DNA of 32,000 nt from Chlamydiota bacterium (GCA_016196885.1 JACPWU010000022.1:1-32000); one strand, 5' to 3'. Counted from the stretch's first letter, positions 8,014-11,690 are shown. Translations and numbers: made by a program. The notes: generated from the letters alone by a model not told the origin.

Positions 8014-8034
8014 TATCTATCCAATGATTCCATT

Positions 8035-9801
8035 CTATTCAGAACCTCCAGGATTCACAACAGAATCAAGACTCAAATCTAAACTTCTTTCTTCGCGAAT
8101 GGGACGACCTTCGGAGTCAACAGGACAACCCTCCGGAATTCCTAAAGGAGATCTCCCTCTTTCTCCTGTCCCCTCGGCCCCGGGCTGTCCTTCTTCTTCT
8201 CGGCCGAAACGCCTGGTTTGCTCTTCCCCCCGCTCATCTCGCTCTAATTCTTTCTGCCATGGGGCAACTCTCTCCATCAAAGCACCGTCTAAATCACCCC
8301 CTTCAGGATCAAGGGGATCTAGATCTGGACCCATCTCTGAAGAGGACTTCTTGTCATCTCCTGATGAATCTTCATCCTCTTTATTTTCATCGTCACTGCT
8401 GTCTTCATCACTGTCTTTATCATCCTTGTCATCATCAGAATCGTTAGAATCAGAAGTATCTTCCTTGGCTTTTGAGTCCGTCTCTGACTGATTCTCCGAC
8501 GCACCTGTCTCTGAAGAAGTTTTCCTGTCTCCATCACCAGACCCTGATGTGACACCCCCTACCCAGCCACTTTCCCCCAAGGGCGTCGCCCCAACCGTTC
8601 CCCTTCCTTCAGATGGGGTCTCGTCCTTCTCACCTCCATCCGTCTGGGTCCCTTTCTGAACCCAAACTTCATGAAAAGTTTCTCCATTGTCATCGCTCTC
8701 CTCAACCACCACCCCTCCATCGGCAGAACGATGTGTGCGTCTGTACAGACTCACTTCACCATCCGATCCATAAAGAACTGTGACTTCTATATCCACCCCT
8801 CTCTCATTCTTGGAATAGGTAGAATGAACATAGCCCTGAACATGGCCATCCGCATCTCGATGTTCTGAAAAACGATGTTCAAGCCCGTCTCGATCTCTCC
8901 ACTCGGAACTCCGCATGGTTCCCCCATTCTGTGTATCGGTGTCCCGTCCTTCTCGAGGGGGTCGAGTCCCAGACCAGCCCCCAATTTCCCTTAGTATTCT
9001 CCTGCCGGGTCTGGAAAAACTGCCTCCTCCCTCTGAGACAATACCCAATCCAAGGCGAGATGAAGGAGGAGCCTGGGAAGGCAAAGGAGCCTTTCCAAAA
9101 GAACCCAGCTCATCCCTTCCGGGTTCCCTCTCTCCCAAAGAATGCCCTGGAAAACTTTCTTCATCCCTTGGAAGGACGTCCACCTTTTCTATTTTCTCTG
9201 GAGCATCCTCCAAAAGAGGACTGCCAAATTTATCTCCTAAAACCTCTCGATAGGAATTCTCATCTTTGACTCCTAAAGTTCTTGAGGCATCCCCCAATAT
9301 ATTTCCATTCTCCAGCTCTCCTCGAGCACCCGAAGAAAGGACACCCTTCTCCACAAAATCTGCTTTCCTAACATCCATCGGAATATCCATAGAAGCACTT
9401 CCAGAAGAAGGAACATTCGCAGGATTCATGGCGGCACCCATCGAGGGAAGCGGCCCAGCGGATGCTGGCAAAACAGATCCAGAGCTGCTTGAAGAAGCCG
9501 CATCGCGAATGGGTTGAAGCACCTGTGCTCTGGCAGGATCTTGAATCCCTGTTTGGGACAAAAGAGAAGCATCTTGGGGGTTGTGCACAACATCTCTTTC
9601 TCCTAAAACCGTTGAAGACGCTCCTCCCTTCTGTGAAGCTGAAAACTGCGTCGAAATCCCTTGTGACAAATTTATTTGGGAAGACCCCGATGTTGAGCTT
9701 ATCCCCTTCTCATCGGAGGCTCCTTCCACCATCCCAAAAGAAATAAGAACCAGAAATAAACTGAAAAATTTTCTTCTCATCATTCCTCCTCTCAATCGCA
9801 A
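8035..9801 (-). CDS. Secreted, low-complexity, strongly acidic hypothetical protein. The likely true start is ATG 9783 or 9780.
   Basis: Signal peptide MMRRKFFSLFLVLISFGMVEGA with no lipobox Cys. GAGGAGGA lies just 5' of the internal ATGATG. Long S/G/P/E-rich sequence and a D/E/S/K tract (DSNDSDDDKDDKDSDEDSSDDENKEDEDSSGDD). Co-directional with and abutting neighbouring genes. Confidence 0.6.
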   Translation of the reverse strand: MRLRGGMMRRKFFSLFLVLISFGMVEGASDEKGISSTSGSSQINLSQGISTQFSASQKGGASSTVLGERDVVHNPQDASLLSQTGIQDPARAQVLQPIRDAASSSSSGSVLPASAGPLPSMGAAMNPANVPSSGSASMDIPMDVRKADFVEKGVLSSGARGELENGNILGDASRTLGVKDENSYREVLGDKFGSPLLEDAPEKIEKVDVLPRDEESFPGHSLGEREPGRDELGSFGKAPLPSQAPPSSRLGLGIVSEGGGSFSRPGRRILREIGGWSGTRPPREGRDTDTQNGGTMRSSEWRDRDGLEHRFSEHRDADGHVQGYVHSTYSKNERGVDIEVTVLYGSDGEVSLYRRTHRSADGGVVVEESDDNGETFHEVWVQKGTQTDGGEKDETPSEGRGTVGATPLGESGWVGGVTSGSGDGDRKTSSETGASENQSETDSKAKEDTSDSNDSDDDKDDKDSDEDSSDDENKEDEDSSGDDKKSSSEMGPDLDPLDPEGGDLDGALMERVAPWQKELERDERGEEQTRRFGREEEGQPGAEGTGERGRSPLGIPEGCPVDSEGRPIREERSLDLSLDSVVNPGGSE

Positions 9802-10277
9802 AAACCTGGAATATTATTTGGATTAAAACAACCTCCGCTTCCTGGATCCGAGCTCGCACCTGATCCTTCGATTGAAGACCCGCCAGAGGATGATTCAGGA
9901 ACAAGATCGCTCTCCTCAACAGAAGGGGACGACTCCGCCTCATCCGAAACCGCAGGCGAAACTTTATCCCTGAGAACCTCCTCGCCTAAAAACGTTTGGG
10001 CCTCTTCTACTTCCTGATCATAAGGAGGAAGTCCCATCAAAAGCTGAGGAGGAATCATCTCCCATCGATAAAGCCTTACTTTTTCAATTCTCCACGGACG
10101 GTTTAATAAATTTAATTCCTCTTCGATCTTTTGATCCGACAAATAAGAGGGAGAATCTGCAGTCACACCCTTGCCCAATACACTTAAAAAAAGAGCAACC
10201 CAAAAGGTGATTCGAGAATTAAAGATCCCAATAGAATGAAAGCCCATAAATATTCCTCTCATATTCGGCAAAATCAT
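9792..10277 (-). CDS. Small secreted hypothetical protein. The start is uncertain, possibly ATG 10247.
   Basis: Hydrophobic signal-like segment RITFWVALFLSVLGKGVTA, an acidic/Ser-rich C-terminal half, and a terminal CFNPNNIPGFCD with two Cys. Overlaps the upstream gene's 3' end and the downstream gene's 5' end. Confidence 0.5.
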   Translation of the reverse strand: MILPNMRGIFMGFHSIGIFNSRITFWVALFLSVLGKGVTADSPSYLSDQKIEEELNLLNRPWRIEKVRLYRWEMIPPQLLMGLPPYDQEVEEAQTFLGEEVLRDKVSPAVSDEAESSPSVEESDLVPESSSGGSSIEGSGASSDPGSGGCFNPNNIPGFCD

Positions 10278-11565
10278 AATTAGAACTTGTCGTCACATAA
10301 GTATAACTCAATTCTACCTTCGCCTTCTCGTTCCAAAAATTTCGAGAGAGTCCACCCCCACACGTATAGACATCGTCCAATCTCTCTGGATCCGGCGTAA
10401 ACTCTACATAATCTTCACTCTGGTATTCCACTCGACTGAAAAGCCGAAGCTTCCAAGGAAGCGCAAGAGAAATAAAACCGCTGATTCGATGGCTCTCCAG
10501 ACGAAAGACATTTCCCTCCACGTCATTCCACTCAAAAAAATATCCAGGTCCTAAAACCAATCTGTTTTGGAACAAATAAAAACACTGCTGAGCGCCCACC
10601 TCATAACTCAAGCCATCTCTTGAAAAACGTTCTGGAAAATCCGTATCCGTTTCGAAATTTTTTTCATGTATGCTGATCTTAGGTCTGAAAACAGCCTGAT
10701 CCAACCATTGAAAATCGAGTCCTGTAGAAGCTTCATATTCTTCGCTGAAATCCTCCCCTCCCAAACGGATAAAATGATAATTTCCCTGCAAAAAAGCCTG
10801 ATAAGGGAAATCACCCCACCTGCCCTTGCGCTGTAAAAAAAGCCTTGGAGAATGACTCATGACGTCAAAATCTTCCAGGGTCTCTTCCTCATGAAAACTC
10901 TCATAAAAGGTGTAACCTCCTCCCCAGGTAAAAGGCTTTCGACCCTCCTTTTGCTCCCAGATTCGAAGTTCTATATCCGCGGAGGCAATCAAGCGATAAG
11001 ACTCTGTGGCGTCATCTCCTTCTACGTGGCGAGAACGTCCCCTCACATTGTCGTCATACTCCCCTGATAAACGGAGTAAAAAATTCCAGCGCCGATCTTT
11101 TTTGCGCACCCCCTCCACTTGCCGAAGACGTTCCAAAACAGGCAAAACTTCCCTGGCCCTTTGTGCGTAGAGCGAATCCGGAGCCCTCTTTTGAATGTCA
11201 GTTAAAAGACGAATGGACTCTGATAAGTCCCCTCGATAAGCGAGCGCCTGAGCCAAGTGATAACGGCAAGAAAAACTTTCAGGTTCAATTTTTAAGGCCT
11301 CTCGAAAAAGAAGAATGGCCTCATCTTCTTTGTTCAACTCTACAAGGCATATCCCTTTCATTCGCAGAAGAAAAGGATCTTGGGGACTTTTTTCAAGAAG
11401 CTTGTGAATCACTTCAAGGGCAGGGGCATATTCTTTTCTTTTGATCAAATAGGCTGCACTGTCCCAACCCTCAGTGTCCTGGAGAGCTGCAAGCCAACCC
11501 TGAGAGGTTAAAAGAAAAAAAACAAAAAAGAGACGGATCCTTTTTAACAATTTATTCATTTTCAT
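10219..11565 (-). CDS. Outer-membrane protein with an N-terminal TPR domain and a C-terminal predicted beta-barrel (Slam/DUF560-like or small polysaccharide-porin-like architecture)
   Basis: The track ORF runs to 11628, but its first 21 codons (MMGRTFIAYDDLERSLRLAKR) translate the REP-like element. The likely start is MKMNKLLKRIRLFFVFFLLTSQGWLAA (ATG 11565 or 11559). TPR-like helices span about residues 50-170. After that comes alternating beta-strand-like sequence beginning RRWNFLLRLSGEYDDNV and ending YGLSFYWDL. Confidence 0.72.
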   Translation of the reverse strand: MKMNKLLKRIRLFFVFFLLTSQGWLAALQDTEGWDSAAYLIKRKEYAPALEVIHKLLEKSPQDPFLLRMKGICLVELNKEDEAILLFREALKIEPESFSCRYHLAQALAYRGDLSESIRLLTDIQKRAPDSLYAQRAREVLPVLERLRQVEGVRKKDRRWNFLLRLSGEYDDNVRGRSRHVEGDDATESYRLIASADIELRIWEQKEGRKPFTWGGGYTFYESFHEEETLEDFDVMSHSPRLFLQRKGRWGDFPYQAFLQGNYHFIRLGGEDFSEEYEASTGLDFQWLDQAVFRPKISIHEKNFETDTDFPERFSRDGLSYEVGAQQCFYLFQNRLVLGPGYFFEWNDVEGNVFRLESHRISGFISLALPWKLRLFSRVEYQSEDYVEFTPDPERLDDVYTCGGGLSRNFWNEKAKVELSYTYVTTSSNYDFAEYERNIYGLSFYWDL

Positions 11566-11579
11566 TCTCTTGGCTAATC

Positions 11580-11690
11580 TCAATGATCTTTCGAGATCAT
11601 CGTATGCGATGAAAGTTCTCCCCATCATGCTTTTTTCGTAGTCGCCCCATTTATGGGGCTGCCCGATGAATCGGGCGACTACAAAATGAG
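11580..11690. repeat. REP-like composite element, copy 2 (same flanks as copy 1, core in the opposite orientation)
   Basis: The core at 11638-11682 reads GTAGTCGCCCCATTTATGGGGCTGCCCGATGAATCGGGCGACTAC. This is the exact reverse complement of the 22547-22591 core. Confidence 0.85.

Follow-up and report, generated by a model that had tools for sequence, protein, structure and literature searches.

Which function is encoded by three tightly packed genes on the minus strand of a 32,000-nucleotide (nt) stretch of DNA from a Chlamydiota bacterium (GCA_016196885.1, JACPWU010000022.1:1-32000)? This whole stretch is called the window below, and all coordinates are counted from its first letter. The unit studied here lies between the dGTPase gene and nagA and consists of three open reading frames (ORFs): gene A (10219..11565, minus strand; 446-448 amino acids (aa)), which encodes a tetratricopeptide repeat (TPR) domain followed by a predicted 14-strand outer-membrane barrel; gene B (9792..10247, minus strand; 151 aa), which encodes a small exported partner; and gene C (8035..9783, minus strand; 581-582 aa), which encodes an exported low-complexity orphan. 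An N-terminal hydrophobic signal-like segment, free of cysteine and without a lipobox, can be read in the sequence of each of the three. The original prediction, made from this DNA alone, had described the genes as overlapping or abutting, as ORF calling and reading of the junctions confirmed, and had compared A with the surface lipoprotein assembly modulator (Slam) proteins of type 11 secretion, with B and C as possible cargo. We find that A and B very probably act together, and we propose, with confidence that is evenly balanced, that they constitute a conserved two-gene outer-membrane module predicted to export or display proteins.

Conservation and distribution of the A-B pair

Loci were found with a 12-sequence alignment of A as query, and the neighbourhoods of 15 of them were compared by BLAST clustering of all ORFs, a scope that applies to every statement below on genes that do or do not recur beside A. 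A was present in 15/15 loci and B in 13 by BLAST or 15 with a hidden Markov model (HMM) built from ten B proteins, and no gene family besides A and B occurred in at least three of the loci. In a sixteenth locus (L038), B was found independently behind a contig-end fragment that corresponds to the C-terminus of an A protein. With this locus included, a B homologue detected by the HMM stands directly downstream of A in 16/16 loci that have a close A: in 14 other loci its start lies 5-28 nt beyond A, in the window the two genes overlap, and in L038 it comes behind the A fragment. Elsewhere than downstream of a close A the B HMM gave no match, including beside three distant A-like genes (27-28% identity) carried by three genomes of another family. 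The pair is compact, about 1.8 kb, and the B protein of the window has 31% identity to that of the same-family genome G003 (E 2e-17). Conserved synteny of all three genes in relatives, on which the original prediction was made to depend, held for A-B in the 16 loci and failed for the third gene, which is not kept.

A word-indexed search with A returned only 12 full-length relatives, and an exhaustive profile search returned about 40 clusters (50% identity) at E below 1e-90, besides many weaker matches that are mostly TPR-driven. Judging by their titles, the metagenome-assembled genomes (MAGs) with A belong to Candidatus Auribacterota, Verrucomicrobia/Verrucomicrobiota (including Chthoniobacter and Methylacidiphilales), Kiritimatiellae, Candidatus Omnitrophota, Desulfobacterales and Desulfocapsaceae; Kiritimatiellota bacterium B12222, whose genome is complete, also has A (locus L029). 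That A is paired with B in at least five phyla argues strongly for their joint action. At a finer scale the module is accessory and patchy, since among 40 relatives of the window genome a close copy of A was present in only one same-family genome (G003), and two other same-family genomes, of 95-97% completeness, are without it. The ATP/ADP translocase family, used as a lifestyle marker, was not matched, and the positive control was likewise unmatched.

Domain architecture and predicted fold of A

In Pfam, TPR families alone were over threshold in A (TPR_19 9.4e-10, TPR_2 1.1e-9 and also TPR_14), without any barrel family. The periplasmic TPR domain, delimited from Pfam, the structural model and conserved columns, covers residues 31-149 of the called protein P0001 (11113..11469, minus strand) and comprises seven helices, or about 3 TPRs, in which the motifs RYYLAQALAY.G and AP.S.YA are conserved. 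It is followed by the barrel domain (residues 157-446; 10222..11091, minus strand), which was delimited from the AlphaFold strand list, Foldseek and invariant columns, and in which the motifs EYDDNV, FSRDG and P.P.R.DD are invariant. The AlphaFold model, built from 12 homologous sequences with a predicted local distance difference test (pLDDT) score of 85, contains a signal-peptide helix, the seven helices at 31-149, a short low-confidence linker and 14 strands at 157-445; the first barrel strand is RWNFLLRLSGEYD and the aromatic-rich C-terminus reads ...GLSFYWDL. The layout first proposed for A, namely a signal peptide, TPR-like helices, a strand region starting from RWNFLLRLSGEYD and an aromatic terminus, is therefore upheld by the agreement between the Pfam TPRs and AlphaFold, and the model has the 14 strands that had been expected of a Slam protein.

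When the model was compared with the PDB by Foldseek, the top matches were the 14-strand OmpG (3e-13) and CymA, with TPR-porins next. Neither by fold nor by sequence did the PDB matches to A include a Slam structure; a sequence search of the PDB with whole A gave TPR matches only, and the best match of a barrel-only profile had E=0.25. A plain OmpG-like diffusion porin was considered for A and rejected, as it leaves the TPR domain and the obligate partner unexplained.

The TPR-porins among these matches bear on another possibility, which had first been raised from the adjacent nagA-glmS: that A is a small version of the porins that export exopolysaccharide (PgaA/BcsC/PelB/AlgE-AlgK). Such systems do resemble A in having periplasmic TPRs that are either fused to a barrel of the outer membrane or cooperate with one, and Foldseek lists BcsC (2.4e-12) and PelBC (1.4e-9), but with low TM-scores (0.36-0.45) and a large root-mean-square deviation. 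NCBIfam adds weak matches of A, limited to the TPRs, to PrsT and PgaA. Some relatives of A match BBP2_2 (PF10082), a family that has in the genome of the window a barrel beside Wza- and Wzc-like genes; these matches, however, span only the last ~85 positions (about 290-378) of the 378-position model. Moreover, the polysaccharide systems have larger barrels (16 strands in PgaA; PMC8406197), long TPR arrays and synthase genes, whereas A has 14 strands, about 3 TPRs and no such genes: no glycosyltransferase, synthase, Wza or Wzc recurs in its loci, and nagA-glmS lie beside it in the window only. Because strand number, TPR length and neighbourhood all disagree with it, the polysaccharide reading is largely refuted, and we regard it as very improbable.

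Relationship of A to the SlipAM superfamily

Examples of the Slam family are Slam1/2 of Neisseria and NilB and HrpB of Xenorhabdus. The corresponding Pfam family, PF04575 SlipAM (formerly DUF560), has a curated cut-off of 22 bits, and relatives of A were counted as matching at E<=0.01. The hmmscan check that had been suggested for A gave the TPRs described above and no PF04575 match: window A scored 9.4 bits (E about 1) at model positions 220-285, and on TPR_Slam (PF24575) it scored 20 bits for a cut-off of 35.2. In the wider family, among 41 close relatives (26-43% identity), SlipAM was matched by 7 (best 1.9e-9) and TPR_Slam by 15; among 54 more distant full-length relatives (19-28% identity) the corresponding numbers were 15 (best 3.1e-11) and 34. 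In the orthologue P0002, residues 120-298 of the 299-aa barrel align with SlipAM positions 110-287 of 288 at 26.6 bits, above the cut-off, and a Verrucomicrobia orthologue also exceeds it (23.2 bits, whole-genome search). When barrel-only sequences are used, the SlipAM matches of the relatives are colinear with the A barrel and of equal length. Since SlipAM and TPR_Slam match part of the orthologues and of the distant relatives in this colinear way, we interpret A as a peripheral branch of the SlipAM superfamily (Slam/type 11 secretion), not as a certified member. The Slam/DUF560 assignment is thus retained for the architecture (signal peptide, ~3 TPRs, 14 strands) and for remote homology at the level of the family, but not for the window protein on its own score.

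Reference proteins were also sought: none of 14 control genomes contained a canonical proteobacterial Slam protein, and no SlipAM match at 1e-10 was found in a MAG titled Enterobacterales (L034/G046) or in 181 genomes of its class.

Other barrel families are matched by part of the same relatives, BBP2_2 by 6 and DUF2860 (PF11059) by 4 of the 41 close ones, and BBP2_2 by 7 of the 54 distant ones. A has in common with these families a YDDN-type first-strand motif, the BBP2_2 barrel of the same genome beginning with QYDDNLF. However, window A matches neither model (for PF10082, in a genome search in which two other barrels of the same genome do match), the relatives match only the C-terminal quarter of the longer BBP2_2 model, and the true BBP2_2 protein of the genome has no TPR and lies in a Wza/Wzc-type locus.

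That locus, in the genome of the window (G000, contig C14, L017:1225-4060), encodes a barrel without TPRs that is matched by BBP2_2 (1.5e-14) as well as by SlipAM (1.3e-5), followed by Wza-like and Wzc-like genes, as judged from translation alone; it looks like a polysaccharide export locus. The double match of its barrel indicates that the Pfam models BBP2_2 and SlipAM overlap.

Compared with the type 11 secretion system (T11SS) as a whole, A agrees in having a Sec signal peptide, a 14-strand C-terminal barrel and, judged by the generic TPR models, a short periplasmic TPR domain near its N-terminus; it has a similar size (446 aa for a family median of 481 aa; PMC12282271), an exported partner encoded next door and, in part of its family, the weak colinear profile matches. 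It is unlike this system in its score below the family cut-off, in the absence of TonB or metal-uptake genes nearby and in its occurrence in PVC-group phyla, Omnitrophota and Desulfobacterota, T11SS being predominantly proteobacterial (PMC8406197, PMC12282271). The partners differ as well: the constant partner of A is small and disordered with an N-terminal core, whereas the cargo of the tested cluster 1 systems has a C-terminal 8-strand barrel of the TbpB type (TbpBBD / lipoprotein C). A precedent for a DUF560-type barrel with a non-canonical constant neighbour is provided by the cluster 3 (marine) T11SS loci, in which a DUF1194 protein without the C-terminal barrel is constant, its role as cargo, partner or member of a complex being unresolved (PMC12282271). 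DUF1194 is nevertheless a folded, Rossmann-like and vWA-like domain, whereas B consists of ~50 conserved residues and a disordered tail and belongs to no family.

The constant partner B

An alignment of 18 B proteins delimits a conserved core at about residues 35-85 (DQKIEEELNLLNRPWRIEKVRL...GLPPYDQEVEEAQ; 9993..10145, minus strand), directly past the predicted cleavage site; in 18/18 proteins an A-x-A-type cleavage site stands just ahead of this core. Its consensus is [DE]x(3)Dx(3)G[LF]xx[RH]PW, then, after about 15-20 residues, G[LF]PPY[DH]Q[QE]xExAQ, which may also be written DQxID..GLL.RPW...GLPPYDQ.VE.AQ. Behind the core comes a variable, disordered tail, in which Pro, Asn, Ser and Gly are frequent and which is 10-120 residues long. 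At the C-terminus of the window protein we read from the sequence a two-cysteine loop, CFNPNNIPGFC (9798..9830, minus strand), which is identical in P0023 and has similar C-x(6-11)-C counterparts at the ends of P0021, P0024 and the B proteins of L013, L024 and L021, and which is absent from many other B proteins. The AlphaFold model of B (mean pLDDT 66) shows a single helix with confidence (residues 35-45); the rest is without regular structure, and there are no strands. No family was found for B in Pfam and NCBIfam, no signalling domain is recognisable in it and, apart from the cleavable signal peptide, there is no transmembrane anchor. As predicted from these features, B is a previously undescribed small, mostly disordered, Sec-exported protein. 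A leader-core peptide resembling the ribosomally synthesised and post-translationally modified peptides was considered for B and rejected, because no modifying enzyme or protease recurs in the loci.

A short, disordered protein with a core resembling a linear motif is what would be expected of a TPR ligand, and A and B could accordingly form a non-secretory envelope module in which B would be a periplasmic ligand, regulator or tether on the TPRs of A, as a signalling or structural link, the third gene being unrelated. That gene is indeed not conserved, and it is missing in three loci. Nevertheless, the lack of any anchor beyond the cleavable signal peptide and of a signalling domain in B fits poorly with such a role, genes for sensors, sigma or anti-sigma factors do not recur beside the pair, and the exported low-complexity proteins in the third position of 9 loci are left unexplained; we consider this explanation somewhat unlikely.

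The properties of B also allow it to be seen as the sole cargo, that is, as a small secreted or displayed peptide whose core would be the signal for the TPRs of A (compare the TPS domain of two-partner secretion) and whose tail would be the functional part, C being incidental. B is the only constant neighbour of A, the length of its tail ranges from about 10 to 120 residues, the CFNPNNIPGFC loop is common to the window and P0023, and of the two loci in which the Gly/Ser/Thr tail is longest, one has no third gene. However, many tails consist of no more than 10-20 Pro/Asn/Gln residues, to which no function can readily be assigned, the polarity of B is opposite to that of known T11SS cargo (PMC12282271), and the third position is repeatedly occupied by exported repeat proteins. 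On balance we judge it unlikely that B is the only protein handled by A.

Gene C and the variable third position

C is composed of 13% S, 13% G and 20% D+E. Two regions stand out in it: a central strand-rich stretch (residues 295-392; 8605..8898, minus strand), read from the sequence as six or seven short alternating segments with DG/NG turns, which may contain a small barrel, and a polyacidic Ser/Asp/Glu/Lys tract (residues 425-500; 8281..8508, minus strand), defined by composition in 30-residue windows. In this tract the 30-residue windows contain 10 to 16 D+E, the two covering 421-480 are without any hydrophobic residue, and the last ~160 residues of the protein are of acidic low complexity. 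Neither Pfam nor NCBIfam gave a match to C, its central part had no homologue among 5.8 billion proteins, and the central stretch had no significant similarity to the third genes of other loci. The gene originally presented, at 588 aa, as co-transcribed with A is an orphan in a variable third position.

This position is nonetheless rarely empty: of 15 loci in which there is space for such a gene, 12 encode an exported protein next on the same strand, which in 9 of them is of low-complexity or repeat type. In L011, L013, L014, L020, L021, L024, L029 and L038 it is an exported protein of about 290-680 aa rich in Gly/Ser/Thr/Asn/Gln/Pro; L028 has an S8 subtilase, L012 a CotH-fn3 protein and L027 a TPR-containing protein; L019, L022 and L026 have no comparable gene. 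BLAST and phmmer comparisons among the third genes linked L021 with L024, and L011 weakly, but no others. Short hydrophobic strand repeats occur in several of them, with 8 copies of VFTVDMSTTTGG in L013 (6395-8422), 8 copies of DVF[VT] in L029 (6783-8516) and GII[IV]Q units in L014 (8071-8931) and L038 (566-1426).

These strand-unit proteins, with their Gly/Ser/Gln-rich linkers, recall amyloid or beta-solenoid fibre subunits, their types being mutually dissimilar.

Functional interpretation

That a Slam-like pore is encoded beside exported proteins points to the export of proteins or to their display on the surface. The chance that the A-B pair exports or displays protein appears to us to be about even, and what is encoded here is probably, as far as can be predicted by sequence comparison, a new version of the Slam-type export system. 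In such a module, Sec would export both A, with its barrel and periplasmic TPRs, and B; the core of B would dock on A, most plausibly on the TPR groove or in the barrel; and the module would carry proteins that Sec has exported, and that are largely unfolded, through the outer membrane or onto it. The proteins moved would be the variable tail of B, the exported protein encoded third (here C), or both. As for C itself, its role as cargo of A-B is put forward tentatively, as a candidate assignment with somewhat less than an even chance.

Candidate cargo is expected next to the barrel gene, where T11SS loci usually encode it (PMC8406197, PMC12282271). B and C had been called atypical cargo for having signal peptides and no lipobox. 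The lipobox is indeed missing, but this is not atypical in itself, because soluble T11SS cargo is known (PMC8406197); the atypical point is the absence of a TbpB-type C-terminal barrel, since a C-terminal 8-strand barrel unites the tested T11SS cargo (PMC12282271).

Several observations weigh against an export system of the Slam type. Such a C-terminal barrel is detectable in neither B nor C, as judged from Pfam and NCBIfam, the model of B and the composition of C, and the conserved part of B is N-terminal, a polarity opposite to that of known T11SS cargo (PMC12282271). Window A stays below the SlipAM cut-off and most of its close relatives also fall short, and some relatives match BBP2_2 or DUF2860 instead of SlipAM, so that the barrel could be part of a broader set in which protein export is not the role of every member. 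Lastly, three loci have no third gene, no B-like motif was found in the C proteins, and the proteins of the third position mostly have no motif in common.

In other systems, a dedicated barrel in the outer membrane recognises an exported protein that is small or conserved at its N-terminus: CsgG recognises CsgF, and TpsB the N-terminal signal of TpsA. Like the loci described here, curli (CsgF/CsgG) and two-partner secretion have repeat-rich secreted proteins encoded alongside; unlike them, they have no sequence or fold relation to A-B, and they may serve only as an idea of how B could work. Extended by this analogy, A-B might be an undescribed outer-membrane display system of the PVC group and neighbouring phyla, in which the core of B would dock in the TPR domain or the barrel of A, its tail would thread to the surface, and there it would anchor or nucleate the fast-evolving Gly/Ser-rich, short-strand-repeat proteins of the third gene as a fibre or matrix layer, combining a curli-like logic with a type 11-like pore; we offer this full scenario as a quite improbable one.

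To our knowledge, no Gram-negative secretion route has been named more recently than type 11 secretion, and tests of it are confined to a few animal-associated systems of Proteobacteria, whose cargo has one common C-terminal domain. A Slam-like clade in mostly uncultured phyla, always accompanied by a small disordered partner, would widen the taxonomic range of the system, and it suggests that the barrel can couple to its partners via a different recognition element, an N-terminal linear motif.

Gene organisation and neighbouring genes

The frame of A is open over 10219-11628, with a likely start at ATG 11559 or 11565; the called 446-aa form P0001 begins at 11559, and the homologues align from there. 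The frame of B (P0018) is open over 9792-10277, and its likely start, ATG 10247 with AGGA ahead, gives a 29-nt overlap with the 3' end of A. C (P0025, 581 aa) lies in a frame open over 8035-9801 and starts at ATG 9783 or 9780; a Shine-Dalgarno sequence, GAGGAGG (9785..9791, minus strand), was read between the stop of B (9792-9794) and this start, the spacing from the stop of B to the start of C being 8 nt. Co-transcription of A, B and C is what we infer from the overlap and the 8-nt spacing only; scans for promoter and terminator consensus sequences gave matches no more numerous than in shuffled sequence. Downstream, nagA begins 21 nt past C (8014-8034) and is followed by glmS. As the gap to nagA is this short and all the genes from der to glmS lie on the minus strand, the unit may exceed three genes and be transcribed with nagA-glmS. 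Upstream, a 45-nt palindromic repeat (GTAG...CTAC, two hairpins) is found at 11638-11682, between the stop of the dGTPase gene and A, and may separate A from the upstream transcript.

Some loci carry additional genes beside the module. In an NCBI MAG (L013:8412-11520) and in Kiritimatiellota bacterium B12222 (L029:8521-9977), the third gene is followed by a common pair, absent from the window, that encodes a 186-192 aa protein of no family and an HTTM-domain membrane protein, which is vitamin K-dependent carboxylase-like (PF05090, 4.6e-13). Another pair, encoding a 503-512 aa protein with C-terminal TPRs and a 184-198 aa protein, is common to an Omnitrophota locus (L022:2567-4739) and a Desulfobacterales locus (L027:6122-8177), and lies beside A-B downstream in one locus and divergently upstream in the other. 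Finally, on the metagenome contig of L038 (1499-2680), the gene after A-B-C weakly matches Phage_base_V and CIS_tube, and resembles in this respect the tube and spike of contractile injection systems.

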